DNA of 64,000 bases from a virus: IMG/VR virus record IMGVR_UViG_3300037067_022550; one strand, 5' to 3'. Within the stretch, counting starts at the first letter, position 1; every line of letters starts with the position of its first letter. Shown piece after piece: positions 5,912-56,738 of the stretch. The notes under the pieces are model-generated. The model made no database searches, had not been told where the DNA came from, and saw only the letters and a program-made list of their open reading frames with translations. The position numbers and the translations under genes are program-made.

Positions 5912-5993
5912 TGGTGCTCCTGACAGGAATCGAACCTGCATTTTCATTTCCATTATGCACTATCTGTTTAGGAAACAGTGCCAATACAGGAGC
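5912..5993 (-). tRNA. tRNA-like gene, atypical fold (possibly tRNA-Leu(UAA)-like or degenerate)
   Basis: Reverse complement gives a perfect 7-bp acceptor stem (GCTCCTG/CAGGAGC), discriminator A, encoded CCA, and a canonical T arm GCAGG-TTCGATT-CCTGT. The 45-nt middle does not fold into a standard D arm. The best hairpin is TGTTT-CCTAAAC-AGATA extended by GCAC/GTGC, loop triplet TAA. Confidence 0.5.
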
Positions 5994-6618: not shown

Positions 6619-6695
6619 TGGCGTCCCCGGCAGGATTCGAACCTGCGACCCTGGGATTAGAAATCCCATGCTCTATCCAGCTGAGCTACGGGGAC
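6619..6695 (-). tRNA. tRNA-Arg (anticodon TCT), CCA encoded
   Basis: RC = GTCCCCG TA GCTC AGCTGGATA GAGC A TGGGA TTTCTAA TCCCA GGGTC GCAGG TTCGAAT CCTGC CGGGGAC G CCA. Perfect cloverleaf, anticodon loop TT-TCT-AA. Confidence 0.9.
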
Positions 6696-20003: not shown

Positions 20004-20723
20004 ATGAGTTTAATTAGGTTAAATGATTATAAAATAAGTGGTAGGCAAGACAAATATCAAGGGAAAGACTTTGTTGGAAAGCTTGAAGTTTCCAGAGAAT
20101 TACCTGATATAACTAAGGATATTTTTAGAAAGGCTCATTTTGGAATATCAGAAAGATCTTATGATGATCAAGCCATAACCTGTTTAGATGGAGAGGACAG
20201 ATTTTTAGATATAGATGGCATTAATTATTTTAGTGGAGAAAACTTTAAGATAGAATGCAAGGATTTTTCCAGGTTTGGTGCTCATGAAATGATAGGTGTT
20301 CCTAGGCGTTACATACAAGAGAAGGCCATATTTTTTAATTATATCATTTTTATATTTAGATACAATATAAAGGTACTTCAATCTTTTGTTAATTTTCATA
20401 AGTATAGGAATATAGATGATGCCATTCAAGACTCTTTAGATAAGGGTTTTTTGTCTATGAAAGATGGGAAGATATCTTACACTCTTTGGGGTAACAGGCT
20501 TGACATTTTATTAAGGCCGGAGAATAGAATGATAGACAAAGAGGATCAAAAGAATTATGTTTGTTCTGATTTGGGTAGATATAAGGGAGAAAAGCAATAT
20601 CTTTTCAAGATTAATTCTATGCTTTTAATAGATGATTTAATAGAGCAAGAAAAGCATAAGGAACGTTGGCCTAATATTTGGGAAAAGTATTTAATTAATG
20701 ATTATAAACTACCCAACCACTAA
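20004..20723 (+). CDS. hypothetical protein
   Basis: 239-aa ORF. Stop codon lies inside repeat copy A. Confidence 0.55.
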   Translation: MSLIRLNDYKISGRQDKYQGKDFVGKLEVSRELPDITKDIFRKAHFGISERSYDDQAITCLDGEDRFLDIDGINYFSGENFKIECKDFSRFGAHEMIGVPRRYIQEKAIFFNYIIFIFRYNIKVLQSFVNFHKYRNIDDAIQDSLDKGFLSMKDGKISYTLWGNRLDILLRPENRMIDKEDQKNYVCSDLGRYKGEKQYLFKINSMLLIDDLIEQEKHKERWPNIWEKYLINDYKLPNH

Positions 20724-20760
20724 AGATGTCGTGGTTTTACGCTCCCGTAATAAAAAGGGA
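20709..20760. repeat. site-family copy A (intact): ctacccaacc-ACTAAAGATG-tcgtggttt + TTACG/CGTAA hairpin
   Basis: Left half identical over 20 nt to the flank of the tnpB 3' end (37595-37614). Right half matches the flank beyond the tnpB 5' end (38841-38873) and copy B. Confidence 0.7.
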
Positions 20761-21090
20761 TGTCATATTTATCCTTGTGCATCTTTTTTAGTCTTGTCCA
20801 ACGGTGTAAGTGTAACAAGTTCCTTGCTAATAAATTTTGGCATCCAGCACCTACCCTTGAACCAGTGCGTCTCTGTTTCCTTGCAAAAGCTGGAAAACTC
20901 AAACCACCAATTCATATGGCTACGAGCTTGGTTTTCCGTCAACCCGGAGTCGATCAGACTTGCAATTGTGTCACTGACCGCCTTATCACAACAGTACCGT
21001 TTTGTTTTATTTTTTCTCATGTATATGCTTCCGTGCTTGTAAATTTTAGTTACATATTATTTGGAAGTGGCTTACTATTAGGTTATCCCA
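20730..21090. other. GC-elevated island without credible ORF (candidate structured RNA or foreign DNA)
   Basis: About 42-45% GC vs about 28% surroundings. Only atypical overlapping ORFs on both strands. Confidence 0.3.
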
Positions 21091-31209: not shown

Positions 31210-32322
31210 TTAGCAAGCTTCCCGTAATATATTTAAGTATTCCAATACCTTTTCATAGCTCCAAGCATGAATGTAATTGTCGCCTTGCGTTACATTTTCT
31301 TTTGAAAAATCTGGATTTAAAATGGTTTTTAAATTGCTCCAATCAATATTTACAACTCTTTTTCTCCATCCGATTTTTATTGTTCCAAATTGAGTTATAA
31401 ATTTATACCAAGGAGAACATTCTATACATTCACAATATTCGTTTTTTACAGGCAAAACACTTTTAATTATGAAATCTGCTTTGTGGAATATTTCGTTGAA
31501 TTTCTCTAAAATTTCATGTTCGTTTTTTAATTTATAGCAATTCTTATGAAAATATTGACTTGTGTGAAACAATAGTTTATCTCCTTCTTCCATTGGATCA
31601 GCCAAAGAACATTTAACCCATCCATGTTCATTGGATGGCTGTTTTCTCATTATTTCATCTTTTTCCCAAGCAGGATCTGGCTTCAAATCAATATATTTTT
31701 TGTTTTGTAAACTATAATCTGCTAAAAGATAAAATGATTTAAAACTATAGGTTTTACCATCAACAACAATACCATCACAAATACTGTTTCTTTTTGCAGC
31801 ATTAACAAATACTGATCTTGGTTTTCCTATAAAATCTTGAGATGGTGTAAGTTTTTCATAATCATTTTTGCATATAATATCGTGACAATTTTTAATATTC
31901 CATCCAGACTTGCAAAAAGGACATAAAAATTTTGATTTTGGTAGCCAACATGGAGAATAACTAATTGTAGTTTGCCCCACTATTTTTGCGGAAATATTGT
32001 TTTGTATTTCTTTGATTGTTAATGCATTTTGTTCCATTTTTTCATCATAATCTTTAATATATTCCCATAATTTTGACATAGAAATTACGGCAGGAAGATC
32101 TGGTATTTTTTCTATAGGTATAAATGGTTCATTAAATTTCATCAAATTACCGCAAGTGTCTAAAACAAATCTACCCAAAACGCAATACTCAGACAAGCTT
32201 TCTCTACGGTCATATCCAGCTTTGTGACGCTCATCCATCAACATAACGAAACTATCCAAATCTTTAAGATTTGCCAGTATTCTATCAATATCATCGTACC
32301 AAACAGGATTAATAATTTTCAT
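31210..32322 (-). CDS. hypothetical protein
   Basis: 370-aa ORF with several CxxC pairs. Confidence 0.55.
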   Translation of the reverse strand: MKIINPVWYDDIDRILANLKDLDSFVMLMDERHKAGYDRRESLSEYCVLGRFVLDTCGNLMKFNEPFIPIEKIPDLPAVISMSKLWEYIKDYDEKMEQNALTIKEIQNNISAKIVGQTTISYSPCWLPKSKFLCPFCKSGWNIKNCHDIICKNDYEKLTPSQDFIGKPRSVFVNAAKRNSICDGIVVDGKTYSFKSFYLLADYSLQNKKYIDLKPDPAWEKDEIMRKQPSNEHGWVKCSLADPMEEGDKLLFHTSQYFHKNCYKLKNEHEILEKFNEIFHKADFIIKSVLPVKNEYCECIECSPWYKFITQFGTIKIGWRKRVVNIDWSNLKTILNPDFSKENVTQGDNYIHAWSYEKVLEYLNILREAC

Positions 32323-32398
32323 ATTTATACTCTGTAGTCAATAAAATCCTAACATTTTTAGTGGCTGGTTAATTTAGTAACTTTACCAATTGATTCAA

Positions 32399-32626
32399 CT
32401 ATAATTGTTTTTCCAAAAATTCTATGTAACAATCTTTGCAAATGGAGTCGCCAATGTTGTAACGATGCCCAAAATTATGAAAAAAATCAACAAAATTTTT
32501 GTCCATACCGTACGTAAGAGACTTTCTCCCCTTATTGTCTTCTACTTCGCTCTGCATAATGCTTGCTTTGCCTTTATAAACTTTGCAAACAACACATTTT
32601 TTCTTTGCTGAATTTTTCATAATCAT
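32399..32626 (-). CDS. zinc-ribbon protein
   Basis: CVVCKV...CKDC. Confidence 0.45.
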   Translation of the reverse strand: MIMKNSAKKKCVVCKVYKGKASIMQSEVEDNKGRKSLTYGMDKNFVDFFHNFGHRYNIGDSICKDCYIEFLEKQL

Positions 32627-32656
32627 CCTAGCATCTTTAGTAGCTGAATAGTTTAT

Positions 32657-33490
32657 TTAAATAAAAACAGCATTTTTTTCTTTGTGAATAACTAAATCTT
32701 CTGTAAGCATATTGTGCCATTCTTTTGCTGTAACTTTAAAGGAAGCAAAAGTTGTTGCGTTATTTTCTGCCCAAGAACATAATCCTTCCAATGAAGAAAA
32801 TACTGGAGATATTGGAGATCCTTCGCTGGTATTTTCCCAAAGCTGGAAACCCTTGCCTTTTGGAGGTTCTTCCCTTTGCCATTTTTCGTGAAGTTTTCTT
32901 ATTTCTTCTGATTGCCAAATTTCTCCCTCACCTTTACAATACTTACATTTACCATAAACTCCCAGCCTTTTAGCCCTAGTTTCAATGCATATCCAGGAAT
33001 TAATAGAATCGTGTCCCATTCCACCAGATATACTCCATTTATTAACTTCTTCTGCTGTGGGGTGATACGGGGGATTTTTTTCTTGCCAACCTTTTGTCTT
33101 ATCCCAAATATGTGTAAAATCAATTAACCTATTATTTTTTACTAAAGCATCTACTTCGTCTTGGGTAAGATGATGACTCCAAGCCTTGTTATTATATCTA
33201 TATTTTGGACTCACCTGTATCCATTCTACTTCATCATTAGAAAAACCGTACCAATTATCAGACAATTTTTTGGTAGCTGGGTTTAGACCAGTATTGCCAC
33301 ATGATTTGCATTCTTGGGAGTTATAAGGGTTTATATAACCCTTCCATACTTGATTTAAAGGCCAATCAAAATTCATAGGAACTCTTTTTAATTGTCTACC
33401 CATATTATTTTTTATCCTTAATAAGATATTTTGTGCATAATTTTTCTTTTCAATAAAACAAACAATGGCATAAAAAATATATAAAGTCAA
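32657..33490 (-). CDS. hypothetical protein
   Basis: 277-aa ORF with CKSCGN / CKYCKG pairs. Last gene of the minus-strand block. Confidence 0.55.
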   Translation of the reverse strand: MTLYIFYAIVCFIEKKNYAQNILLRIKNNMGRQLKRVPMNFDWPLNQVWKGYINPYNSQECKSCGNTGLNPATKKLSDNWYGFSNDEVEWIQVSPKYRYNNKAWSHHLTQDEVDALVKNNRLIDFTHIWDKTKGWQEKNPPYHPTAEEVNKWSISGGMGHDSINSWICIETRAKRLGVYGKCKYCKGEGEIWQSEEIRKLHEKWQREEPPKGKGFQLWENTSEGSPISPVFSSLEGLCSWAENNATTFASFKVTAKEWHNMLTEDLVIHKEKNAVFI

Positions 33491-33534
33491 GTATTATTTT
33501 GTTTTAAATTATCAACTTTTTAACGGAATGTCTC

Positions 33535-33562
33535 TTGAAACGAAAGTAATCTACAATAAAAT
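33535..33562 (+). promoter_or_regulatory. sigma70-like promoter (TTGAAA-16nt-TAAAAT) in divergent intergenic region
   Basis: Seen directly upstream of the plus-strand paralog array. Confidence 0.35.
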
Positions 33563-33630
33563 TATTGATTAGTCAAATAAATAATTATTTATTTTGAAGT
33601 ATTTTTTTCATTTTAACAGAATAATAATAG

Positions 33631-34959
33631 ATGCAAATAATAAGAATATCTTCCAATTTAATGAATCCAATATTAATGACTAGTAAACTTTTTAGAGACA
33701 TTTTTAAAAAGCTTGGTACGAAGCAACCCTATAATGAAGAACTTTACAATTCTAAGATCCAGAAATTTTTGGATAAAAATAATTTTGTAATAAACACAAT
33801 TCGTGCTAATTGGCTATATATTCTATCCTTTAGTCCTTTTGCTTATCAATATATTTATCCAAAATACTTAAAAAAAGAAGAAGAAACAATTAATGAAACC
33901 AAAAAGCAAACAATTGCAGCTTATGTCTCTGGAAACATAAATATTATTTCAAGAGTTTATAATGACAAAGAGATCATGGAGTTGTTTGCTAATGATAAGC
34001 AAAAGACAACTGAATTATATAATGCATTTATTTATTCTATACATTTTCTTAAAAATATATTAAATAATTATTCTACTTATTGCCCTTCAGTGATTAAAAA
34101 TACAGAAAATTTATTAAAGTTCAAAGATATAGCAAGGGAAGAAGTAGTAAAAATGGTTAGTTTCTTTACTATTAATGTTCCTGATATTTCTAGTTTTGGT
34201 TCTGTTATTTCTACTTTTGAAAATTTACCTGAGGAACTTAAAACTCCAAAAGCTGAAAAGATTTTAATAGAAAGGATATGTTCTGCTCTTGAATCAGATC
34301 CTACCTATTATTCAAAAAAACTAATAGATGAAGATAAATTTAAGAAGTTTAGATTTTTGCCTCAAATAATTGAAGCTACAAAAGTTGGTTGGATAAAACT
34401 GCTTGAAAATCTTATGAGCAAACCAACGGATATAGGAGACAATGGTTCTACAATAATTACAATATTCCCTGGTTTTTTAGAATATACTTGTATTCCTCCA
34501 GAATTTAAAACAGACCCAAGGATTATGGCTATTAGAGAAAGGGTTAAAAAACAGATGGTGACTTTTCTTAATAATAATTTTAAAAATGTATTTAATACAA
34601 CTTTTGGTGATTCCGCAATTCTTACTCCACAACAAAAACAAGAATTAGAAATTTTAATAAATGAATTTAGAGATGAAGATTTTATGGTATCTCTTTATTG
34701 GAAAGAAAAAGAAAAATTAAAAGAATATCTTCCGCTAAAAGAAAAAATGAGTGGTAATGTAACAATTAAATTTATTCAAGATTATTCTGCTATAATTACT
34801 GGGCAGGACGGCCAAATAAAAGAACCTAAAAATTTTGCTGCCGGAGATATAGAGAGCGTTTATGTTCTTAAAGATATGATGAATTATATACGTGTTGAAC
34901 TTAAAGACGGTTCTATAATTGATTTATTAGACAAGAGTTCTTTTGAGATATTACCATGA
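33631..34959 (+). CDS. paralog-family protein 1 (DEDFMVS / IPPEFKT motifs)
   Basis: Shares LINEFRDEDFMVSLYWKEK and IPPEFKTD with the next gene. Confidence 0.6.
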   Translation: MQIIRISSNLMNPILMTSKLFRDIFKKLGTKQPYNEELYNSKIQKFLDKNNFVINTIRANWLYILSFSPFAYQYIYPKYLKKEEETINETKKQTIAAYVSGNINIISRVYNDKEIMELFANDKQKTTELYNAFIYSIHFLKNILNNYSTYCPSVIKNTENLLKFKDIAREEVVKMVSFFTINVPDISSFGSVISTFENLPEELKTPKAEKILIERICSALESDPTYYSKKLIDEDKFKKFRFLPQIIEATKVGWIKLLENLMSKPTDIGDNGSTIITIFPGFLEYTCIPPEFKTDPRIMAIRERVKKQMVTFLNNNFKNVFNTTFGDSAILTPQQKQELEILINEFRDEDFMVSLYWKEKEKLKEYLPLKEKMSGNVTIKFIQDYSAIITGQDGQIKEPKNFAAGDIESVYVLKDMMNYIRVELKDGSIIDLLDKSSFEILP

Positions 34960-35936
34960 AAATAATTAAAATAGCACAAATAAGCCAACAAGATGATGAA
35001 ATGTCCCTAAGAAATGTCTTTGAAGAAATAAAAGGGCAAGTTTCTCATTATAATGATGTATCTTTAAATAATGATTTTTATGTCAGTATTTTAAAATTAA
35101 GAGAAATATGTAAAAGAAGACCAGATTTAATTTTATTTCCAATAAAGAAATTATGGTTAGATTTAATAAGAGATAATAAGTCATATTTATACAAATTTAT
35201 AATCCCTGAAAGTCTTAAAAATGAGCAAGATATAAAGAATCTAGTAAGAAATGAAATTTTAGAAGAGTATGAAAATTATCTACAAACTGCCATAGAACTA
35301 ATGATTAGATATGATGAAACCGAAAAAATATTTATAGAAAATGATTTACATTTAACGGGGGCTTTTTCAGAATATATTATAAAATATCCGGAAAACTATA
35401 AAAAGCACAGACCAAAGGCTTTAACTGCCCATTATTTGGACAACACTTTTTTTTGGGAAGCTCTGTCTAATTTTACCAAAAAATTTAATTTATCTAATTA
35501 TCCAGATGCACTACTTGCACTACTGACTTATAAAACCATCCCACCAGAATTTAAAACAGAACATGTTATAAAACACATAGAAAAATTCTTGATAAGTCTG
35601 TTTTTAAGAGAGCCGTATCTTTATGAAAAAGAGTGTCCTCTTGATTTTAAAAAAAATGGAGAAATATTAAAAAGTAGAAAAACAGGTTGGATAAATCTTT
35701 TAGATCAAAAAAGCCCCCTTTTATATGGTAGTTTGCCAAAAGATTTAAAACAAGATGAAGACTTTTTTAGGTACAGAGAACCAGCTAAAAAGGCTTTAAT
35801 GGGGAAATTATTACATCCCAAAGAAGAAAAAGATCCTTCTATTCAAGTCTATGTTGATTTATTATTAGAAGAATTTAAGGACGAAGATTTTATGGTTTCT
35901 GCATTTTGGAAAAACAAACATAATGAAAATAATTAA
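34956..35936 (+). CDS. paralog-family protein 2
   Basis: MKIIKIAQ N-terminus, IPPEFKTE, EFKDEDFMVSAFWKNK; ATGA overlap with gene 1. Confidence 0.6.
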   Translation: MKIIKIAQISQQDDEMSLRNVFEEIKGQVSHYNDVSLNNDFYVSILKLREICKRRPDLILFPIKKLWLDLIRDNKSYLYKFIIPESLKNEQDIKNLVRNEILEEYENYLQTAIELMIRYDETEKIFIENDLHLTGAFSEYIIKYPENYKKHRPKALTAHYLDNTFFWEALSNFTKKFNLSNYPDALLALLTYKTIPPEFKTEHVIKHIEKFLISLFLREPYLYEKECPLDFKKNGEILKSRKTGWINLLDQKSPLLYGSLPKDLKQDEDFFRYREPAKKALMGKLLHPKEEKDPSIQVYVDLLLEEFKDEDFMVSAFWKNKHNENN

Positions 35937-36612
35937 AATTACACAAAAAAATAATTCTAATGATTGGATAAAGCAAGGATTTGTTGTTGCCAAAACTATA
36001 GAAGCAATAAATGAAATTTTCAAGCCATTTTTTAGTGGAACCGGCGTATCAAATATTCAAAGTTTTAGAATAATTGTAGATAAAATAAAACATATTCCAT
36101 TAGAAGAATTACAAAACAAAACAGTTCTTGGGGTATTAAAAGAATATTATTTAGAGGTAATTAAAAAATACACTTTAATATATCTAGATTATTTATTTTA
36201 TGACGAAATTTATCCTGAATCTCTCAAAAAAGATCCCTATATTTTAAAAGAAATTAAAAAAGTTGTTTTAAAATCTTATAATGAATATGCTTATAAGAGT
36301 TATGAACTCAACAATAAGATATTTAAAATGCTTAAACGTTTTAAAAATGATGATTTTATTATGAGTATTTTGTATAAAAAAATGTATAATAAAATGGGGC
36401 AAGAAAATAAAGATTTGATGAAAATAATTGAAGAAATAAAAATAGAAAAAGAAAGATCTAAAAAAATACACAGAATATTAGAGTTCTATTCTCTTACTCA
36501 CGAAAACCCTTCGGCCTATGAGATGGATATAATAACTAAAGATTTAGGGCAAAAGAATAATGGAGAAATAAATAACTACATAGATAAATATGTAGTTAAG
36601 TGGGGAAAATAA
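35923..36612 (+). CDS. paralog-family protein 3
   Basis: MKIIKITQ N-terminus, RFKNDDFIMSILYKK; 14-nt overlap with gene 2. Confidence 0.6.
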   Translation: MKIIKITQKNNSNDWIKQGFVVAKTIEAINEIFKPFFSGTGVSNIQSFRIIVDKIKHIPLEELQNKTVLGVLKEYYLEVIKKYTLIYLDYLFYDEIYPESLKKDPYILKEIKKVVLKSYNEYAYKSYELNNKIFKMLKRFKNDDFIMSILYKKMYNKMGQENKDLMKIIEEIKIEKERSKKIHRILEFYSLTHENPSAYEMDIITKDLGQKNNGEINNYIDKYVVKWGK

Positions 36613-36657
36613 AATATCCAATGACTAAAGATGTTGTGGTTTCCTTAACTACGGAAA
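36612..36657. repeat. site-family copy B: aaatatccaatg-ACTAAAGATG-ttgtggtttcc + TTTCC/GGAAA hairpin
   Basis: Right half aligns with copy D (ACTAAAGATGTYGKRGTTTCCTT..CTACGGA). Left half differs from A/C. Confidence 0.65.
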
Positions 36658-36867
36658 ATGAAAATTAAAAAAATAGCAGGAAAAATTATTAATAAAGATG
36701 ATGCCATTATGTATATTTTTAATGGTTGTAATGGTGAAGTTTTATTAAAGCTAATACCAGCAGAATATGAAGTCTTATTAAATAAATATAATGAAATAAT
36801 GATGGAAAGAAATAAACCCAAAGACTTGCCCGGACAATTAACTTTTTTTGATGATATTAAAACTTAA
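36658..36867 (+). CDS. hypothetical protein
   Basis: 69-aa ORF starting immediately after copy B. Confidence 0.45.
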   Translation: MKIKKIAGKIINKDDAIMYIFNGCNGEVLLKLIPAEYEVLLNKYNEIMMERNKPKDLPGQLTFFDDIKT

Positions 36868-37531
36868 TTTCTTTTGAAAAAACACTTATATGCACTGCTG
36901 TTCTGTTTCTGGAATAAGAATAAATATTATGGGTAGAAGAAAATCTATCTTGAGCCCATTTAACGGTGTTTTCTACATCAAATATACCGTATAATCTATT
37001 GTGAACTTCCATGCTTGTCCCCAGTGATTTTCTTATTATATCTTCAGAAGGATTGTGATTAAAAATGAAACGCTCTGCTCCTTCGGTATCAATTTTTATA
37101 AATAGCCCATTACAATCTATTTTGTATTTTTCAATTATGTTATTTAGCAAAAGAGATTGGCATTTTTCATTTTCGCTTTCATTTCCGTTTGAATCTGGAG
37201 AAAATTTATGGGTTACTGAAAATTTACCTTTGTTTTTAACAACTTCTTTACCGTTGCCTAGTGCCAAATTGTAGACTTCTACATCCAAATTTTCAGTGTT
37301 TTTTTTGAGCATATCAAAATTAGATTTGTCTGGTTCAATAGCTATTATCCTAGCATTAGGCTGAAAGAATCTGAAAGGGACTGAATAAAAACCTATGTTG
37401 GCTCCCAAATCTAATATTGTCTTAATACTATTTAGCGGGAACAATCTCATGCCATACATATCTGTATAGGGGGTTCCTTTTGTTCTTAATTCTTTAAGCA
37501 ATATGCGTCTTGAATCTCTATTAATTTCCAT
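36857..37531 (-). CDS. FkbM-family methyltransferase
   Basis: ILDLGANIGFYS motif (D[IV]GAN[IV]G) of FkbM/Methyltransf_21. Confidence 0.7.
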   Translation of the reverse strand: MEINRDSRRILLKELRTKGTPYTDMYGMRLFPLNSIKTILDLGANIGFYSVPFRFFQPNARIIAIEPDKSNFDMLKKNTENLDVEVYNLALGNGKEVVKNKGKFSVTHKFSPDSNGNESENEKCQSLLLNNIIEKYKIDCNGLFIKIDTEGAERFIFNHNPSEDIIRKSLGTSMEVHNRLYGIFDVENTVKWAQDRFSSTHNIYSYSRNRTAVHISVFSKEIKF

Positions 37532-37579
37532 TACTATGAATCTCCACTAATTTTATAATAAATATTTCAATAAAAATAA

Positions 37580-37760
37580 TTAAAAACCTGTCAACTACCC
37601 AACCACTAAAGATGGTTAGGCTTGCTCAACCAACGAACTGGGAGCAATAGGTGGATTGACTGCCGCCCGACTTGGATGGCCTGTAGCGTCCAAGTAGTTT
37701 TTAAGTATGTTGCGAGAAGCATTAAGATCAGCATGGATGCAAAGTCCACAGTGACCACAA
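37580..37760 (-). ncRNA. putative TnpB omega-RNA/reRNA region (3' end of tnpB through the right end)
   Basis: Inference from IS200/IS605 biology. GC-richer 3' segment of tnpB with hairpin CTTGGA/TCCAAG at 37671-37694. Confidence 0.3.
37595..37614. repeat. site-family half C: ctacccaacc-ACTAAAGATG abutting the tnpB stop codon
   Basis: 20/20 identity to 20709-20728. Confidence 0.7.
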
Positions 37761-38850
37761 ACATAGACAGATTGAGACTTGCGGTTGGACTTGAGAACTA
37801 CTCCGCACTTGCTACACTTTTGGGAAGTGTAACGAGCTGGAACATACTCAACCCCTATTCCCTTTGCTTTGGCTTTGTAGGAAAGAAACTGTTCAAACTG
37901 GAAGAAGTTCCATTTGTTCAAGTCCTTCCTTTGAGCCTTTCTCAATCTGGAGTTTCTGATTCCTGTGAGTTTCTCCAGTATGACCGTGCTTCCTGCTTCA
38001 AGCGAATTGACTATCTTCTTGGCAATGCAGTGGTTAACATCTCGTCTAAACCGTCTCTCTTTAGAACTTACTTTTCTAAAGTGTCTTTTGCCGGAATGTT
38101 TTTTCGCCTGAAGACTACTTCTGAGTTTTTCATACCTTTTGCTAACCTGCTTAATCCTCCTTCCGTTAAAGAACTTGTTTTCGGACGTTACTGCAAGATT
38201 GTTGATTCCCCTGTCTATTCCGACGTACTTGCTGGAATGAGGAATATCGTTTATTTCTTTCTCAAACACAACATGCAAAAAAACCTTGCCTTTCTTGACA
38301 AACAAATCAGCCGAAGCGTGTTTCCAGTCCAAATACCTTTCAAAGTATTTCGGAATAATAAGGTTGAACTTCTTTCTTCCTTCCGTAGTTTTGATGGAGA
38401 CGGTTCTGGACTCAAGGAAGAGAGTGTAAGAGTTGACATCATAACGAATAGATGTTTGCTTGGATTGCGGAAGAGAACCTTTCTTGCCTTTGTTCGTAAT
38501 TTCTTTAACAGATTTCAGGGTTTCAGTAGCCTTCATTCTAGCAGAAATAGCAAGTTGGGATGGTAGAGTAGTTCGGCAAGTGTTGTATGTTTTGTGATGG
38601 AGAGAGACACCGTTGGTATCTTTAGACTCAAATCCTACTTTACAGATGTAGTTGAAAGCATCCGTATAAGCTTTAATGGTTGGAAGAAACTCCTTGTCGG
38701 AGCAGTCAACAACCAGTTTTGCTGTTTGAGTCAGTTTCATATATTTAATTCATTCTGCAATTATTTTTCATTCCCTTCTTTTATTTTCAACTATTTTTCA
38801 ACAATGCAAACAGAAAGTGGAACGGCAATTCATCCCCGACACTAAAGATG
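37605..38850 (-). mobile_element. TnpB-only IS200/IS605-family (IS1341-like) element inserted into a site-family copy; ACTAAAGATG present at both junctions
   Basis: tnpB ORF plus about 100 nt of 5' leader, bounded by direct 10-mers at 37605-37614 and 38841-38850. No tnpA. Confidence 0.6.
37616..38740 (-). CDS. tnpB: TnpB (OrfB) RNA-guided nuclease, IS200/IS605 family
   Basis: RuvC-I GIDRGINN, RuvC-II ...ILEKLTGI, zinc finger CSKCG...CGHCG, RuvC-III IHADLNASRNI. Confidence 0.9.
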   Translation of the reverse strand: MKLTQTAKLVVDCSDKEFLPTIKAYTDAFNYICKVGFESKDTNGVSLHHKTYNTCRTTLPSQLAISARMKATETLKSVKEITNKGKKGSLPQSKQTSIRYDVNSYTLFLESRTVSIKTTEGRKKFNLIIPKYFERYLDWKHASADLFVKKGKVFLHVVFEKEINDIPHSSKYVGIDRGINNLAVTSENKFFNGRRIKQVSKRYEKLRSSLQAKKHSGKRHFRKVSSKERRFRRDVNHCIAKKIVNSLEAGSTVILEKLTGIRNSRLRKAQRKDLNKWNFFQFEQFLSYKAKAKGIGVEYVPARYTSQKCSKCGVVLKSNRKSQSVYVCGHCGLCIHADLNASRNILKNYLDATGHPSRAAVNPPIAPSSLVEQA

Positions 38851-38873
38851 TCGGAGTTTCCTTGCCTACGGAT
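38841..38873. repeat. site-family half D: ACTAAAGATG-tcggagtttccttgcctacgga
   Basis: Aligns with right halves of copies A and B. Confidence 0.65.
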
Positions 38874-38894
38874 ATATGAAATGCTAATGATTGC

Positions 38895-39212
38895 CTATTT
38901 ATATTTTGGCTCTTTCCAAGATTTTTTATTGTGTTTATTTTTAAAAACATTATACCATTTAACTTTTAATTTTTGTTGTATAAGATCTTCTTGTTTTTTC
39001 TTATCGTCTTGTTGTCTTAATATTTCTTGTTCTCTTAAATGCAATTTTATTTCTTCAATTTCAGATTTTGTTTTAGCAGTTTTAACATCTTCTCCAACAA
39101 TAATAAATTTTACAGAAGTATTAGGATTCATAACTATTTTTTGGGTGGGTTTGAAAAGGGGTAATGTTGAATCTCTATTGTAAAAATTAGCGATCATGCT
39201 TTTTTCTTTCAA
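38895..39212 (-). CDS. hypothetical K/E-rich protein
   Basis: Minus-strand ORF preferred over the antisense 38848-39183 ORF on composition. Confidence 0.5.
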   Translation of the reverse strand: MKEKSMIANFYNRDSTLPLFKPTQKIVMNPNTSVKFIIVGEDVKTAKTKSEIEEIKLHLREQEILRQQDDKKKQEDLIQQKLKVKWYNVFKNKHNKKSWKEPKYK

Positions 39213-39582
39213 TCATTTTATAAACATCTGATGGTTGCAAACCCCCTTTTTCAGCACCTTTTAAATTAGACATTCCTATTACTCGCAACACAAATTGAAC
39301 ATTATTAGTTCCACTAATAATTTCTTCTTCTATTTTTTCTGGGAATATTTTTGTTTCAAGAAATACCGCTTTTTCAAGTTGTAATTGAACAAGTTTAAAA
39401 CACGCCTTCATTTTTCGATAACAGTAGCCACAACCATCTATGATTTCATATATTTTATTATCATACATAATTCCGCAGTGGTTGTATTTTCCAACTATCA
39501 TCTCTCCTTTCCTTTTTGGAAGGAAGAATATGGTGGCAATAGTTGATTTGTCAGATTCTTGGTCTTTTTTATATTTATTCAT
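39187..39582 (-). CDS. hypothetical protein
   Basis: 131-aa ORF. Confidence 0.5.
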   Translation of the reverse strand: MNKYKKDQESDKSTIATIFFLPKRKGEMIVGKYNHCGIMYDNKIYEIIDGCGYCYRKMKACFKLVQLQLEKAVFLETKIFPEKIEEEIISGTNNVQFVLRVIGMSNLKGAEKGGLQPSDVYKMIERKKHDR

Positions 39583-40259
39583 TATTGGTTTTTAATTTTG
39601 TGAGAATCTATAACCATGTTGAAATATTTACATAGATTTGCCATAAGATTGTTAAAAAAATTTATTGGAAGTAATGGAGTAATTTGAACATGGCTGTTCC
39701 AATAAACTATAGATTTTGCCATATTATTAATATACTCAATTAATTCATCCTTATTTTTATCTTCTAGTTTGGGATCTGTTCCGCCAACTAGCTTAAGAAT
39801 ATTTCTAGCTTCTGTTTCTGGTGGCATGGGTGATTCAGTTTCGTCAGGAAAAGCATTGATGGATATTATTTCCCAAGGAAGATCTGTACTTTGTTCATTG
39901 TTTTCTTGGAGAACTTCGTGAGAATAGAGAACAACTTCTACAAACTTTGCTCTAACTTTATTGCCTGCATATATACTTTGGATATATGGTTGTTCTCCTT
40001 CTCGTCTTGGTTTATAAACAGAAATGAATTTGTCGTTTTCTTGCAATTTAACAATGGAAGAAAAGAATCTTTCAGGAGGAACTTTTACCAAAACAACTCC
40101 TTTTCGATAACCTTTTCGCACTGTAGTTGTCCAGGCTGTTTCTACTATTGATGCTAATTCATCCCAAGTTCCTTCAAAATGGCCATATTTAGAATTTGCC
40201 GTTTGACGTTTAACAAATTTGTTAATGCCTATTTGATTACTTTTAATAAATTTATCCAT
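39582..40259 (-). CDS. hypothetical protein
   Basis: 225-aa ORF. Confidence 0.55.
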   Translation of the reverse strand: MDKFIKSNQIGINKFVKRQTANSKYGHFEGTWDELASIVETAWTTTVRKGYRKGVVLVKVPPERFFSSIVKLQENDKFISVYKPRREGEQPYIQSIYAGNKVRAKFVEVVLYSHEVLQENNEQSTDLPWEIISINAFPDETESPMPPETEARNILKLVGGTDPKLEDKNKDELIEYINNMAKSIVYWNSHVQITPLLPINFFNNLMANLCKYFNMVIDSHKIKNQ

Positions 40260-40346
40260 TTTAACCTTTTCATTGTTTTTTTTAAATTACGATAGGAAAC
40301 ATACAAATTTATAATTAAAATGTCAAGAAGAAAATGTATCAACGCT

Positions 40347-40380
40347 AAAATAGCCTCTTTTTGGGAGAGGCTATTTTTAT
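40347..40380. terminator. rho-independent terminator-like hairpin (AAAATAGCCTCT...AGAGGCTATTTT) followed by T run
   Basis: Up to 12-bp stem, 7-nt loop, TTTTTAT on plus strand; downstream of 40404-40700 (minus). Confidence 0.5.
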
Positions 40381-40403
40381 AGTAATTAATATAAAACTAT
40401 TGA

Positions 40404-40700
40404 TTATTCTGCTGGTGGAGTATAATCAAAAATGCCGTCATTATCTTCCATTTCTTGTTTTAGAACCTTTAGAATGGAAGCAGCAAGCAAGACATACATT
40501 TGAGGATCTTTATTTCCAGATTTAAGTTTTTCTATCAATGACATAAGTTCTTCGTCTTTGTATAGTTCAATTACAACATGCACCGTATCTTTGATTTTGC
40601 CATAATTATCCATAACTGCATTAACCTTATCAATTATAGATGCAAGTGTATCCTTAATTGACTTTTCTTCTGCCAAAGCTGCTCTTGATTTTCTTCCCAT
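40404..40700 (-). CDS. hypothetical protein
   Basis: 98-aa ORF. Confidence 0.5.
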   Translation of the reverse strand: MGRKSRAALAEEKSIKDTLASIIDKVNAVMDNYGKIKDTVHVVIELYKDEELMSLIEKLKSGNKDPQMYVLLAASILKVLKQEMEDNDGIFDYTPPAE

Positions 40701-40776
40701 AATTTTGCTCCTTTAATATAATTGTTTATATTACCTATTATACAATAAAAAAATATTTATTTAAAATTATTTTTTA

Positions 40777-40804
40777 TTGACATTTATTAATAATTTGATA
40801 TAAA
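40777..40804 (+). promoter_or_regulatory. sigma70-like promoter (TTGACA-16nt-TATAAA)
   Basis: Consensus -35 with good -10, followed by AAAAGGAG RBS for 40829. Confidence 0.45.
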
Positions 40805-40828
40805 GGAAGAAAAGGAGAAAATAAACAA

Positions 40829-41563
40829 ATGGATAAACAAGATGTATTAAAGCAATGTAAGATTGATGGAATGATAGTGCGACTTCCAAATATACAATTG
40901 GACAGAGATTTGTATATGCAAGTGGCAAAAGATTTAAACCTTATTGGTGGTAAATGGGAAAGAAAGTCAAAAGGTTTTGTTTTCTTAGAAGATCCAAAAG
41001 AACTGCTATCTCAAATAGTAAGCGGTGAAAAGAGAAATTTAAAAAAAGAGTTCCAATTTTTTGCGACTCCTAGCGTAGTAGCAGACCGTCTAGTAGAACT
41101 TGCTGACATACATGATGATAATACCATTTTAGAGCCTTCAGCAGGACAAGGGGCTATTATAAACGCCATTAACAATAAACATCCAGACAAAATAGTTGAT
41201 TGTTTTGAATTAATGCCAGTCAATAGAACCATATTAGAAAAGATGGCAACGGCTAACATTATCGGTTCTGATTTTCTTTTAGAAACTTGCCCCAATAAAT
41301 ATGATAGAATAATTGCCAATCCTCCATTTGCCAAAAATGCAGATATAAATCATATTCTTAAAATGTGGGAATGTTTAAATAATAGTGGAAAGATAGTAAC
41401 TATTGCATCAAAGCATTGGAAACATTGCAATAATAAAAAAGAGACGGCCTTTAGAGAATGGCTGGCAGGCAAATGCGTACATGAGCATGAAATTAAAGAT
41501 GGGGCATTTAAGGAAAGTGGCACAATGATAAGTGCTGTTATTTTAGTTATTTGTAAAAATTAG
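40829..41563 (+). CDS. DNA N6-adenine methyltransferase (gamma-like order)
   Basis: Motif I EPSAGQGAI and motif IV NPPF. Confidence 0.75.
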   Translation: MDKQDVLKQCKIDGMIVRLPNIQLDRDLYMQVAKDLNLIGGKWERKSKGFVFLEDPKELLSQIVSGEKRNLKKEFQFFATPSVVADRLVELADIHDDNTILEPSAGQGAIINAINNKHPDKIVDCFELMPVNRTILEKMATANIIGSDFLLETCPNKYDRIIANPPFAKNADINHILKMWECLNNSGKIVTIASKHWKHCNNKKETAFREWLAGKCVHEHEIKDGAFKESGTMISAVILVICKN

Positions 41564-41602
41564 CATTCATTAACAATAAGTAGTATTATAAATGTTTTTT
41601 AA

Positions 41603-41782
41603 ATGAATACTGATAAATATAGACCTGAATATGGTAAAATTTGTCAATCCTGTTATAGAAGAACTGAATCAAGAATATATTATAGACCCACAATAGGAAT
41701 GCGAGGTAAAAGATCGCACTTAACTTTATGGAGAAGACTATGTATAAATTGTTGGAAAATGGCAGAGGAAAAGAAGATATAA
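41603..41782 (+). CDS. 59-aa zinc-ribbon protein
   Basis: Manual ORF below track cutoff: CQSCY...CINCW. Confidence 0.4.
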   Translation: MNTDKYRPEYGKICQSCYRRTESRIYYRPTIGMRGKRSHLTLWRRLCINCWKMAEEKKI

Positions 41783-41783
41783 A

Positions 41784-42335
41784 ATGATTAAAGAAATTTT
41801 AGTTTTAAGCAGATTAGAAGCTGAACTCTTGTGCTATGGAGTTGGAAAAACCCCTAAAAAAAATAAATGGCTATTAATTTCTATTTGTTCTCCACAGGAT
41901 GAAATGATCAGGAGCGATTATGTTAAGGGGCAACTATCTAATTGGGGATGCAAGAACTGGGTTTCTTTAATTTTTGATGATATTACAAAGAAAGTTTATG
42001 AAAACATTAAAAAGATATATCCCCATAGCAATAAAATGAACAAAATTAAATTGTTTTCTAATAAAAATGCTCAAACAATAATTAACTTTATTGATAAATA
42101 TAAAAATGATAAAGAAGATTTTATTTTAATAATTCACTGCAAAGCTGGAGTTAGTAGATCTGGAGCTGTCGGGTGGTTTACTTGTAAGTATTTAGGATTG
42201 GATCAAAATAAGTTTTTGGAAAATAATAAAAATATTTATCCAAATAAATATGTCCTTATGTTACTTGAATCTTTAGCAAAAATGGATATTACTACAGAAG
42301 AAGAACATAAGAACATGTTTCTTCTTGACTTTTAA
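41784..42335 (+). CDS. dual-specificity/tyrosine protein phosphatase (CX5R)
   Basis: IIHCKAGVSRSG P-loop. Confidence 0.7.
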   Translation: MIKEILVLSRLEAELLCYGVGKTPKKNKWLLISICSPQDEMIRSDYVKGQLSNWGCKNWVSLIFDDITKKVYENIKKIYPHSNKMNKIKLFSNKNAQTIINFIDKYKNDKEDFILIIHCKAGVSRSGAVGWFTCKYLGLDQNKFLENNKNIYPNKYVLMLLESLAKMDITTEEEHKNMFLLDF

Positions 42336-42384
42336 ATTCAATATGTTATGCTTTTTTTAAAAAAGAAAAAATAGGAGATATAAA

Positions 42385-42678
42385 ATGAAAATAAAAGTTC
42401 CAAGTAAAACAATTGAAGTTTGCGATTTTTGTAAAAGGGACGGTCACGGTTGTCTAACTAGATGTGTAATTTGCGGTAAAGATTATTGTCACAGTTGCGA
42501 AGCTATGATTTGCGGATGTATTCATCAACCAGAAATATGTAAGTCTTGTGGAGAAAATGAAGGTGTTAAAGATGTTATACTAATCTTTGCTGGTAAATTA
42601 AAAAAACTGTTGCATAAAAGAGATTACGCTATGAGATTGAAATTTTTGAAGAGTGAGATAAATAATGAAAACAAATGA
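42385..42678 (+). CDS. cysteine-rich zinc-finger protein
   Basis: Multiple CxxC pairs. Confidence 0.5.
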   Translation: MKIKVPSKTIEVCDFCKRDGHGCLTRCVICGKDYCHSCEAMICGCIHQPEICKSCGENEGVKDVILIFAGKLKKLLHKRDYAMRLKFLKSEINNENK

Positions 42679-42880
42679 AAAATGGCTTAGTGAAACTCCT
42701 CCATGTTGTGAAATTTGTGGGAAACTATTTAATTCTACTGATAATTTTTTCTACGATTTTAAAACATGGAACGGTTCTTGGGGAATTGGATGTGAAACAT
42801 GCTTTAAAGAAAATGAAGGCCAACTCGGGAGCGGTTGTGGTCAAAAATATGATTTAAAAACATTGGAGAAAATATTATGA
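42665..42880 (+). CDS. cysteine-rich zinc-finger protein
   Basis: CCEICGK...CETCF...GCGQ. Confidence 0.45.
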   Translation: MKTNEKWLSETPPCCEICGKLFNSTDNFFYDFKTWNGSWGIGCETCFKENEGQLGSGCGQKYDLKTLEKIL

Positions 42881-43653
42881 AAAATATGATTGATAGAATA
42901 TCTTTATGGATTGCAGAAAAGGTTATTAGTTCTAAATGTAAGGGTGTTTTATACGGACTTAGCGGCGGAATTGACTCTGCAGTAGTGGCTGCTCTTTGTA
43001 GCAAAAGTTTAAGAAGGAACCAACATTTAGGAGTTATAATGCCATGCGGTTCTCAAAAAGAAGACCAGGAAGATGCCATTTTAGTTGCAAGTCATTTAAA
43101 TATTCAAACAGATGTTTTTGATCTTGGAAATACTTACGAAAGTTTATCTCCCAAAAGCTTGTTAAAGTATAACAATCAATTAGCAAATGCCAACCTGAAA
43201 GCAAGATTAAGAATGGCAACCCTATATTATTTTGCCAATACTCTTTCTTATATGGTTGTTGGAACTGGCAACAAATCAGAAATAATGGTGGGTTATGGCA
43301 CTAAATATGGTGATGAAGGTGTTGATATTCAACCTATTGGCGATCTTTACAAAACTCAAGTTTTTGAAATGGCAAAAGTTCTTAATCTTCCAGACAAGAT
43401 TATTAACAAAATTCCATCAGCTGGTCTTTGGCCAGGTCAGAGCGATGAAGAAGAAATGGGAATAACCTATAAAGAACTAGACAGAATTCTGATGGCAATT
43501 GAAAAAAATCACGGATGGGCAATAAATGACAATGAGGCTTCATTTTGTATAGATGAAAAAATATCATTAGAAGATTACCGCAAAGTTAGGAAAATGGTTG
43601 ATAATTCAGATCACAAGAGAAAAATGCCACCAATCTATCATATATGGTCATAA
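42877..43653 (+). CDS. nadE: NH3-dependent NAD+ synthetase
   Basis: SGGIDS PP-loop; GYGTKYGDEGVDIQPIGDLYKTQV and PSAGLWPGQSDEEEMGITYKELD parallel E. coli NadE blocks. Confidence 0.85.
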   Translation: MKNMIDRISLWIAEKVISSKCKGVLYGLSGGIDSAVVAALCSKSLRRNQHLGVIMPCGSQKEDQEDAILVASHLNIQTDVFDLGNTYESLSPKSLLKYNNQLANANLKARLRMATLYYFANTLSYMVVGTGNKSEIMVGYGTKYGDEGVDIQPIGDLYKTQVFEMAKVLNLPDKIINKIPSAGLWPGQSDEEEMGITYKELDRILMAIEKNHGWAINDNEASFCIDEKISLEDYRKVRKMVDNSDHKRKMPPIYHIWS

Positions 43654-55475: not shown

Positions 55476-56738
55476 ATGCAAGTAATTCAATCAAATAAAC
55501 CAAACAAAGTAATCTACTCTTGGTGCCCAAATATTGATCAAAATGCTCTTGACCAAGCCAAGCTACTTGTTGAACAACTCTTTGTTTTTAGGCACATGTC
55601 TCTTATGCCAGATACACATAAGGGGACAGTAATGCCAATTGGAGGGGTATTAGCCACTAAAGATGTTATTCTTCCTTTTTGCGTCGGTTCAGATGGAGGC
55701 TGTGGAATGTGTGCTGTAAAAACTTCTTTGAAGATTGAAGACTTCAGAGAAGGACAGAAGGAAGAACTTTTGCATAGTATGGAAAGAAGCGTTCCTGTAG
55801 GTTTTCAGCATAATGACGAAAAAAGAATGGGGGAAATAAGGCAAAAATATATTCAAAAAATTGAGTATTTGCTTAAAAAAAACGAAGCAGTGTTAAGAGC
55901 TTCAACACGAATATTTCAAAACGTGCCAAAAACTATTGAAGAACAGGTTGGAACCCTTGGTGGAGGCAACCATTTCTGTGAGATACAATATGATCAAGAT
56001 GAAAACATTTGGATAATGATTCACTCAGGATCTAGAAATATAGGAACTAAAATTTGCGATACTTTCAATGATATCGCAATTGATTTAAATAAGAAATATT
56101 ATTCTCAAGTTCCAGAATCAATCCCATTTCTTCCTACCAACACAATGGAAGCAAAAGAATATCTTGCTTATATGAATTTTGCGTTAGACTTTGCTTTTCT
56201 TAACAGGCAAATTATGATGGATTATATTAAAAAGGATATTTCTTTTTCATTCAAACATATGCAAGTTGATTTTGAAAAAATGATTAATATTCACCACAAT
56301 TATGCTTCTCTTGAAAACCATTTCGGAGAAAACGTATGGATTCATCGTAAGGGGGCAACACTAGCCACTAAAGGAACCATTGGGATCATACCTGGGGCAG
56401 CTGATAAAAATTCAGCTTCATATATAGTTCGGGGGAAGGGTAATCCTGACTCTTATAATTCTTGTTCTCATGGTGCTGGCAGAGTAATGGGTAGAAAAGC
56501 GTTTAACCAAATATATAATACTCCAGAAAAAATGAGGGAAATTGTATCTTCCCTAGACGGAATTACTCATAGCAAGTTTAAGAAAGAACAATCTTACAAG
56601 AAAAATAAAGAAACGGGATTGCTTGATGTTTCTGAAGCTGGTGCTGCATATAAAAATGTTTTCTCAGTTATGAAGAACCAGGAAGATTTAGTTGAAATTG
56701 TTACAACCCTTAAAACCTATATTAATATGAAGGGTTAA
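55476..56738 (+). CDS. rtcB: RtcB RNA ligase (3'-phosphate/5'-OH)
   Basis: MPDTHKGTVMPIGGVLATKDVILPFCVGSDGGCGM and downstream His-rich blocks typical of RtcB. Confidence 0.9.
   Translation: MQVIQSNKPNKVIYSWCPNIDQNALDQAKLLVEQLFVFRHMSLMPDTHKGTVMPIGGVLATKDVILPFCVGSDGGCGMCAVKTSLKIEDFREGQKEELLHSMERSVPVGFQHNDEKRMGEIRQKYIQKIEYLLKKNEAVLRASTRIFQNVPKTIEEQVGTLGGGNHFCEIQYDQDENIWIMIHSGSRNIGTKICDTFNDIAIDLNKKYYSQVPESIPFLPTNTMEAKEYLAYMNFALDFAFLNRQIMMDYIKKDISFSFKHMQVDFEKMINIHHNYASLENHFGENVWIHRKGATLATKGTIGIIPGAADKNSASYIVRGKGNPDSYNSCSHGAGRVMGRKAFNQIYNTPEKMREIVSSLDGITHSKFKKEQSYKKNKETGLLDVSEAGAAYKNVFSVMKNQEDLVEIVTTLKTYINMKG

Follow-up and report, generated by a model that had tools for sequence, protein, structure and literature searches.

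Elements of the IS200/IS605 family of insertion sequences (IS) that carry tnpB only, the IS1341-type elements, are accompanied by short gene-less derivatives with common terminal palindromes. Such palindrome-associated transposable elements (PATEs), for example those of Haloquadratum walsbyi, are typically hundreds of base pairs long and have a left end (LE) separate from the right end (RE). In Geobacillus stearothermophilus, the elements ISGst2 to ISGst5 lie next to a pentamer, the transposon-adjacent motif (TAM), which is TTCAT or TTTAT, and their transposon-encoded motif (TEM) is TTCAC; positions 3 and 5 set the TAM and the TEM apart, and short DNA guides co-vary with both (Meers et al. 2023, PMC10055086). 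In ISDra2 of Deinococcus radiodurans, a roughly 150-nt right-end element RNA (reRNA, also called omega-RNA) comes from the 3' end of tnpB and the RE (Karvelis et al. 2021, PMC8612924). PATEs, too, often encode omega-RNA (PMC10055086). Here we describe an element of this kind in a 64,000-nt stretch of viral DNA, IMG/VR record IMGVR_UViG_3300037067_022550. This stretch, which we call the window, covers 64 kb of a roughly 264-kb phage genome, that is, of a jumbo phage, and its GC content is 30%.

The window contains a complete tnpB-only element of the IS200/IS605 family (Table 1). We think, with a probability of about 0.9, that this is a non-autonomous 1286-bp insertion 3' of TTCAT, that the repeats noticed at its ends are the loops of hairpins, and that PATE-like miniatures accompany it. 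A sequence-only reading of the same DNA had correctly recognised the TnpB element, which belongs to a well-described kind with PATE-like miniatures, and mis-drew its architecture. That is, it proposed that a tnpB core had entered one member of a native family of ~45-bp sites, that the 20-mer CATCTTTAGTGGTTGGGTAG beside it is the guide, and that an intact member of the family, here called site A, is a homing target. We consider this proposal extremely improbable.

Table 1. Positions of the element, its parts and the short copies in the window; ^ marks an element boundary.
Feature	Position	Strand	Description
Complete tnpB-only IS200/IS605-family element	37590..38875	-	1286 bp; from the empty-site alignment and the junctions of relatives
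TTCAT target (TAM)	38876..38880	-	abuts LE, outside the element
Left end (LE)	38741..38875	-	holds the hairpin 38824-38866
Right end (RE)	37590..37694	-	smallest conserved portion of the predicted omega-RNA scaffold; shares sequence with the 3' end of tnpB
TTGAC (TEM)	37590..37594	-	last 5 nt of the element
tnpB	37616-38740	-	374 aa, apparently intact; stop codon 37616-37618; from Pfam, PHROG 506 and alignment
LE hairpin	38824-38866	-	GGCAA-ggaaa-CTCCGACA-tctttag-TGTCGGGG-atgaa-TTGCC; the 10-mer at 38841-38850 is its loop
Terminal RE hairpin	37598..37620	-	CCTAACCA-tctttag-TGGTTGGG; contains the 20-mer and the 10-mer at 37605-37614
Putative DNA guide for the TAM	38857-38860	-	GAAA, 5' of the LE hairpin; complementary to TTCAT
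Putative DNA guide for the end motif	37621-37624	-	CAAG, 5' of the RE hairpin; complementary to TTGAC
Predicted omega-RNA guide	37570..37589	-	16-20 nt, AGGTTTTTAATTATTTTTAT, flanking phage DNA; from the RE boundary and the family rule
Site A	20704-20756	-	3'-terminal 46-53 nt of the 335-nt block; TTTAT^tacgggagcgtaaaaccacga-CATCTTTAGT-GGTTGGGTAGTTTAT
Site-A block	20704..21038	-	335 nt, 41.5% GC, window-specific; 83-aa open reading frame (ORF) 20769-21020 (-)
Copy B	36609..36657	-	49 nt, gene-less, ends TTTAT, 3' of TTCAT 36658-36662; nhmmer E = 3e-10
Third short copy	32323..32377	+	degenerate, 55 nt, 3' of TTCAT 32318-32322; nhmmer E = 5e-10; no significant fold
Fourth short copy	32621..32656	+	degenerate, LE-truncated, 36 nt, 3' of TTCAT 32616-32620, ends TTTAT; nhmmer E = 2e-7; no significant fold

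The boundaries of the element were clear from a comparison with an unoccupied locus, for which the sequence-only reading had suggested searching related phages. A homologue of the FkbM methyltransferase at 88% identity led to three sister-phage contigs (L153, L154 and L155) with the same gene order as the window (DUF3228, gp131, gp100, FkbM). These contigs have no tnpB and have an empty 77-nt spacer next to FkbM (L153:2217-2293); the insertion point of the window lies in this 77-nt spacer, between a 105-aa gene and the FkbM gene. When exactly 37590-38875 is removed, the window aligns gap-free to the sister-phage spacer. The window reads ...ttagcatTTCAT^AGGTTTTTAATT and the sister phage ...ttagcatCTTAT^AGGATTTTTACT, the right sides being also given as AGGTTTTTAATTATTTT and AGGATTTTTACTATTTT; an A comes after both boundaries, which leaves an ambiguity of 1 nt. 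The empty site of the sister phage contains no ACTAAAGATG, which is the 10-mer noted at both supposed junctions, no ctacccaacc, no tcggagtttcc and no short copy. Thus the element is 1286 bp long, lies 3' of a pentamer, and entered no pre-existing repeat. No base is duplicated at the insertion when it is compared with the empty site, and elements of the IS200/IS605 family are known to make no target duplication (PMC8612924). These results disagree with the idea of an element inside one copy of a repeated ~45-bp site, since the inserted DNA takes in both of the supposed outer flanks.

The same boundaries were obtained from relatives. We compared about 45 related tnpB elements from IMG/VR and metagenomes, with protein identities of 53-72%, and more remote ones taken from genomes; two further contigs (L008 and L009) are the same locus as the window at 100% identity and so are uninformative on boundaries. 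At the LE, TTCAT is invariant in all 25 independent junctions and is followed by 9-10 nt and then GGCAGGAAAC, while the positions 5' of it (-6 to -10) show no conservation. The window junction there is TTCAT^atatccgtaGGCAAGGAAACtccgaCATCTTTAGTgtcgggg. TTCAT is also an experimentally shown TAM of ISGst elements (PMC10055086). Downstream of tnpB, 33 independent elements share caag-stem-(t)ctttag-stem'-ta(a/g)TTGAC; their RE junctions, which can also be summarised as hairpin-GG(G)TA(A/G)TTGAC, have TTGAC or TTGAT in 33/33, and the sequence directly after is unrelated. In the window this junction is caagCCTAACCAtctttagTGGTTGGGtagTTGAC^aggttttt, and two of the relatives (L013 and L015) have an identical ccaaccatctttagtggttgggtagttgac within unrelated contexts. 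The boundaries of the window element agree with all these LE and RE junctions. Because the junctions are conserved in relatives, both supposed outer flanks are conserved parts of the mobile element; they travel with tnpB in about 45 unrelated contexts, which contradicts the proposal of a native site that was entered by a tnpB core. The GC content is 39-47% in the element versus about 30% in its flanks.

The view that this is a TnpB-only IS200/IS605 element was upheld, and the position that the sequence-only reading gave for tnpB (Table 1) was accurate. The product of tnpB matches OrfB_IS605 (PF01385, E = 5e-14), the Cas12f1-like_TNB zinc ribbon (PF07282, E = 5e-22) and PHROG 506. The RuvC triad D176/E256/D338 and the CxxC..CxxC zinc finger are intact and invariant in the alignment of TnpB homologues, and TnpB would be active. 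This clade of TnpB is compact and phage-borne. An autonomous member of the family would carry a Y1 (HUH) TnpA in cis. This family (PF01797) is not among the 25 Pfam families listed (all E <= 2e-7) of the 43 that are matched by 95 window ORFs. Therefore the element is of the tnpB-only (IS1341) type and, as far as 64 kb of the roughly 264-kb genome shows, non-autonomous.

We then consider the 10-mer ACTAAAGATG, which had been explained as a 10-bp target duplication or as an element end that mimics its target. It does stand at 37605 and 38841 as had been reported. But six exact copies of it are present in the window (20719+, 32632-, 36624+, 37605+, 38841+ and 55656+), and at up to 1 mismatch there are 26 matches against 7.8 expected. 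The 10-mer is therefore a family motif and not a junction pair; the one at 55652-55667 is a chance match within the rtcB gene. On the tnpB strand it reads CATCTTTAGT, and it is the loop of both the LE and the RE hairpin. That is, it appears twice on the plus strand because each end of the element has a hairpin with this loop.

Subterminal hairpins (imperfect palindromes), which mark the family in place of terminal inverted repeats, are thus present at both ends. The DNA fold of the LE hairpin has an energy of -9.6 kcal/mol (z = -2.3), and this hairpin is kept in relatives together with the motif GGCAGGAAAC. Pairing in its inner helix stands at 90%, and both partners have changed in 3 of the pairs; compensatory changes in relatives include CCATACA/TGTATGG of L015 and GGCTA/TAGCC of L012. 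The RE hairpin is identical or compensated in 33 elements. The 10-mer is neither a duplicated target nor a mimic of one. Reading the hairpins as terminators or promoters was rejected, as they accompany tnpB in unrelated genomes and the sister phage lacks them.

In IS608 and the ISGst elements, each hairpin has on its 5' side a short DNA guide that can pair with the TAM or with the end motif. The same arrangement was found here, with GAAA at the LE and CAAG at the RE (Table 1). In the clade, CAA 5' of the RE hairpin pairs with the end motif in 31/33 elements, and CAAG occurs with TTGAC in 30/33. The tetranucleotide also tracks the end motif in the distant set, where we found GAAG with TTCAC (15 elements), GAAT with TTCAA (5) and GAAA with TTCAT (2). 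This recognition logic matches that of IS608 and ISGst, and for this reason it implies mobilisation by a Y1 TnpA. The pairing of GAAA with the TAM and of CAAG with TTGAC would select the cleavage motifs, and the TnpA would have to be supplied in trans.

Next, the 20-mer should be explained. The sequence-only reading was accurate in stating that CTACCCAACCACTAAAGATG is exact at 37595-37614 and at 20709-20728; a search of the window that allowed up to 3 mismatches gave no third occurrence (0 expected). This exact identity, and the resemblance of the short copies to the two ends of the element joined at the 10-mer, speak for a guide with a target at site A. The position of the 20-mer in the element speaks against it. 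For the omega-RNA, an alignment (A4) was made from the final 230 nt of 26 non-redundant elements. The consensus has four co-varying helices with 19 pairs, and 97.6% of cells are paired as compared with 26-49% in slid controls. Both sides were changed in 13 of the 19 pairs, and the covariation was 0.586 versus 0.19, a value reached by none of 500 shuffles. The single-sequence RNA fold of the window reproduces these helices. The G-U pairs are strand-specific, which is compatible with RNA or with a structure of the top strand. The 20-mer is the loop and 3' arm of helix 4, and it is followed directly by TTGAC. Hence it is a base-paired part of a scaffold that ends at the element boundary in 33 elements, with unrelated flanks after it. 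The sequence-only reading had itself said that an omega-RNA model with the guide elsewhere would make the identity incidental, and the scaffold and the TTGAC boundary place the guide elsewhere.

In addition, the 20-mer is exact in 54 other IMG/VR stretches (L099-L152), mostly in the right ends of distant tnpB elements. Those TnpB proteins are only about 25% identical to that of the window, and their right ends finish with GGGTAGTTCA(C/A/T). The 20-mer is thus a deeply conserved scaffold or end element, and its identity with site A is for this reason uninformative about targeting. The conservation of CATCTTTAGTGGTTGGGTAG, base for base, across such distant right ends points to an unusually strong constraint on one terminal hairpin.

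The arrangement of a TnpB omega-RNA, namely a scaffold that spans the 3' end of tnpB and the RE, ends at the boundary and is followed by a guide from the flank, was found here. The guide of such RNAs is the ~16 nt of DNA that flanks the RE (PMC8612924). Since the RE ends at 37590 and the guide is the flank after it, the predicted guide is AGGTTTTTAATTATTTTTAT. This sequence has no second target in the window: it matches only itself, and the 13 matches at up to 3 mismatches compare with 11.6 expected. As a separate observation, RNAalifold proposed a long-range pairing of an invariant CAAY, ~190 nt upstream, with (G/A)TTG overlapping the terminal TTGAC (columns 33-36 with 286-289 of A4; about 37784-37787 with 37591-37594 in the window). 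This pairing shows no covariation and so lacks support; it may be chance, or else the scaffold may be closed in the manner of a pseudoknot.

A profile search of the window with nhmmer detected, apart from the two element ends, four short copies and no others. The four align gap-free as TT(C/T)AT, an LE-like part, CATCTTTAGT, and an RE-like part that ends in TTTA(T/G). To judge from this alignment, they are gene-less miniatures made of the 5' part of an LE, the loop and the 3' part of an RE. Compared with L153-L155, where the site is attTTCAT^TTTCCCC, copy B is a clean 49-bp insertion, and its LE part matches the LE of the element at 26/31 positions (manual count). At this site of the sister phage, ATGA serves as both the stop of one gene and the start of the following one; copy B separates these two genes in the window and provides a new TAA stop. 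The CAT of its TTCAT is the start codon of the plus-strand ORF 36658-36867. Copy B thus has the features of a PATE-like unit or a miniature inverted-repeat transposable element (MITE): it is gene-less, it shares its ends with the family, and it is present or absent at the target motif.

Site A was examined in the same manner. The 335-nt block of which it forms the end is missing from the colinear sister-phage contigs L158-L160, where the junction is TTCAT^AGTCATT. Units of the site-A type recur without tnpB in unrelated viral contigs (L131, L099 and L121) at 86-92% identity over 50-53 nt. Judged by these comparisons, site A is itself an inserted, IS-derived miniature, and the block as a whole may be a non-autonomous element that is composite or carries cargo. 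Its 83-aa ORF matches no Pfam or PHROG family. The outer 5' end of the block (aagcaCGGAAGCatatac) resembles the start of the LE of a miniature. The sequence-only reading also held that the two outer flanks, when joined, are nearly identical to the intact copy. This was true for 22 nt on the right-end side, while the other side agrees at ~11/25 positions only (manual count). Moreover, the match in site A is preceded by CACGA instead of the TTCAT that cleavage would need. Site A lies within an insertion, is absent from the sister phage and recurs in unrelated viral contigs, and is thus not a homing target. Copy B, at least, is an insertion at a TTCAT site, and so is the block with site A at its end.

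How the short copies arose is less clear, and two other origins have to be weighed against the spread of miniatures. They might have no mobility of their own and be scars of full-length elements whose interior was deleted, through recombination or slippage, between identical 11-nt hairpin loops, CATCTTTAGTG, as in a solo long terminal repeat. Every short copy has the composition which this process predicts, namely one LE 5' part, one loop and one RE 3' part, and the resident element has the required direct repeats 1.2 kb apart. The TnpA dimers of IS608 use a two-hairpin substrate. The short copies do not have separate LE and RE hairpins for such a dimer; each has at most one chimeric hairpin, which differs from that substrate, and 3/4 of them no longer fold. 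However, the ends do not agree with deletion. The short copies end in TTTAT (3/4) or TTTAG (one), whereas all 33 full-length relatives have TTGAC or TTGAT. The units of 50-53 nt at 86-92% identity in unrelated viral genomes also fit the spread of miniatures better than repeated deletions, and the single pairing motif of site-A-type units, AAAA, matches TTTAT on both sides. We therefore regard an origin by deletion as somewhat unlikely, and prefer that of PATE-like miniatures. Full-length and miniature copies coexist elsewhere, since an unrelated metagenome contig (L011) carries both: a site-A-like unit (L011:2366-2403; 85% over 39 nt) lies ~1.2 kb downstream of its tnpB element.

The second possibility is that the short hairpin units are primarily regulatory elements of the phage set directly ahead of start codons, such as 5' untranslated regions (UTRs), terminators or RNA-stability elements, and that their likeness to an IS is secondary. 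In 3/4 of the short copies and in 18/25 full-length elements (LE junctions of L001-L052), a gene of the opposite strand begins with the CAT of TTCAT as its start codon; for the third copy this gene is the 370-aa gene 31210-32322(-). Copy B fills the entire spacer between two genes and gives the upstream gene its stop codon. But the sister phage has the same genes intact and lacks both copy B and the site-A block. The units bear the TAM, end-motif and pairing features that are specific to IS, and most of them have a decayed structure. The association with start codons is modest (72% versus 41% at all TTCAT sites of the same loci, p = 0.002, with a crude measure of the background) and can be explained otherwise, because TTCAT is the reverse complement of ATGAA and insertions within genes may be selected against. 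A regulatory origin thus seems quite improbable. An insertion at a TTCAT of a start codon replaces the 5' UTR of that gene. Since no homologue of the 370-aa gene exceeds 35% identity, no empty-site comparison was available for the two copies at 32.3-32.6 kb.

There is also the thought, which we hold to be doubtful, that the units of 36-55 nt form a distinct phage-borne class of single-hairpin IS200/IS605 derivatives, in which one chimeric hairpin and one pairing motif next to it would serve both ends. Their geometry agrees with this, as the TAM lies about 25 nt 5' of the hairpin and the end motif about 7 nt 3' of it. Such a class requires a TAM and an end motif that are nearly identical, and TTTAT or TTCAT is indeed seen on both sides.

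Several results weigh against our reading of a non-autonomous insertion with PATE-like miniatures. First, the miniatures end in TTTAT rather than TTGAC and hence are not direct descendants of the resident element. Second, only site A still folds well, and the other three short copies have no significant fold. Third, with no tnpA among the families listed for the window, the present-day mobility of the element is unproven. Fourth, the predicted scaffold matches no Rfam family. The Rfam check for omega-RNAs that had been recommended gave no gathering-level match over the element (only two tRNAs elsewhere in the window), and the best hit of a permissive search of 37400-39000 (E = 0.24) was noise; expression of the omega-RNA is predicted. 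Fifth, the sister phage has CTTAT, not TTCAT, at the TAM position, and the ancestral TTCAT is inferred from the family. The empty site of the sister phage has 5 mismatches to the predicted 20-nt guide in addition to CTTAT (manual count on the alignment), and it would probably escape cleavage by this TnpB and its omega-RNA during co-infection.

From these findings, the history of the locus can be considered as follows. The 1286-bp element is inserted 3' of TTCAT, without target duplication, in the spacer next to FkbM. The 3' end of tnpB and the RE would encode a structured omega-RNA scaffold, of which the last stem-loop is the 20-mer. With the predicted guide taken from the phage DNA after TTGAC (16-20 nt), TnpB would cut only the resealed empty site, TTCAT+AGGTTTTTAATTATTT, which would favour retention of the element, and site A would stay uncut.

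A megablast of 33000-43000 against INPHARED gave no match, and hence no near relative among deposited phages; protein scans of IMG/VR with FkbM and DUF3228 gave zero relatives, and an exact look-up of the 105-aa neighbouring protein returned no record. The genes of the window include RNA ligases, RtcB, NAPRTase, NAD synthase and two tRNAs; Rfam places the tRNA genes on the minus strand at 5915-5993 (32 bits, just above the gathering threshold) and 6622-6695. Among the 95 window ORFs scanned, Pfam also reported two with a GIY-YIG domain and one with NUMOD3; a simple regular expression for the GIY-YIG motif failed to place the two ORFs. Probably these ORFs encode homing endonucleases, and hence further selfish elements would be present within the window.

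Compared with the known systems, the element resembles ISGst2 to ISGst5 in its motifs. In both, a pentamer TAM abuts the LE, the end motif departs from the TAM at positions 3 and 5 (here TTGAC from TTCAT), and the DNA guides beside the hairpins co-vary with them. Many ISGst copies likewise have no tnpA and need TnpA in trans, they occur together with minimal gene-less elements of the PATE-like type, and their omega-RNA guide is the RE flank. On the other hand, the present element lies in a phage genome and not in a bacterial chromosome, its end motif is TTGAC and not TTCAC, and its miniatures are far shorter (36-55 nt) with a single chimeric hairpin; the likeness rests on motifs and not on protein relatedness. 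With ISDra2, whose TnpB belongs to a family of RNA-guided nucleases, it shares the flank guide of ~16 nt and insertion 3' of a pentamer without duplication. ISDra2 differs in having a tnpA and the TAM TTGAT. As with other IS1341-type elements and PATEs, a tnpB-only element is here accompanied by short gene-less units with common palindromes. In contrast to PATEs, these units are too short for a scaffold, and LE and RE are fused at one loop.

These results indicate how such elements can be misread. When comparative data are lacking, the hairpin loops of an IS605-type element mimic a target duplication, and the terminal hairpin of its scaffold mimics a guide with a second target. With the boundaries corrected, the TAM (TTCAT), the end motif (TTGAC) and the guide of a phage-borne clade of TnpB can be tested, and pairs of occupied and empty sites are documented both for the full element and for a 49-bp miniature. 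If the doubtful single-hairpin class is real, its units would be the smallest mobile DNA of the IS200/IS605 family. They would then insert precisely at start codons, TTCAT being the reverse complement of ATGAA, and would rewrite the 5' UTRs and stop codons of phage genes.

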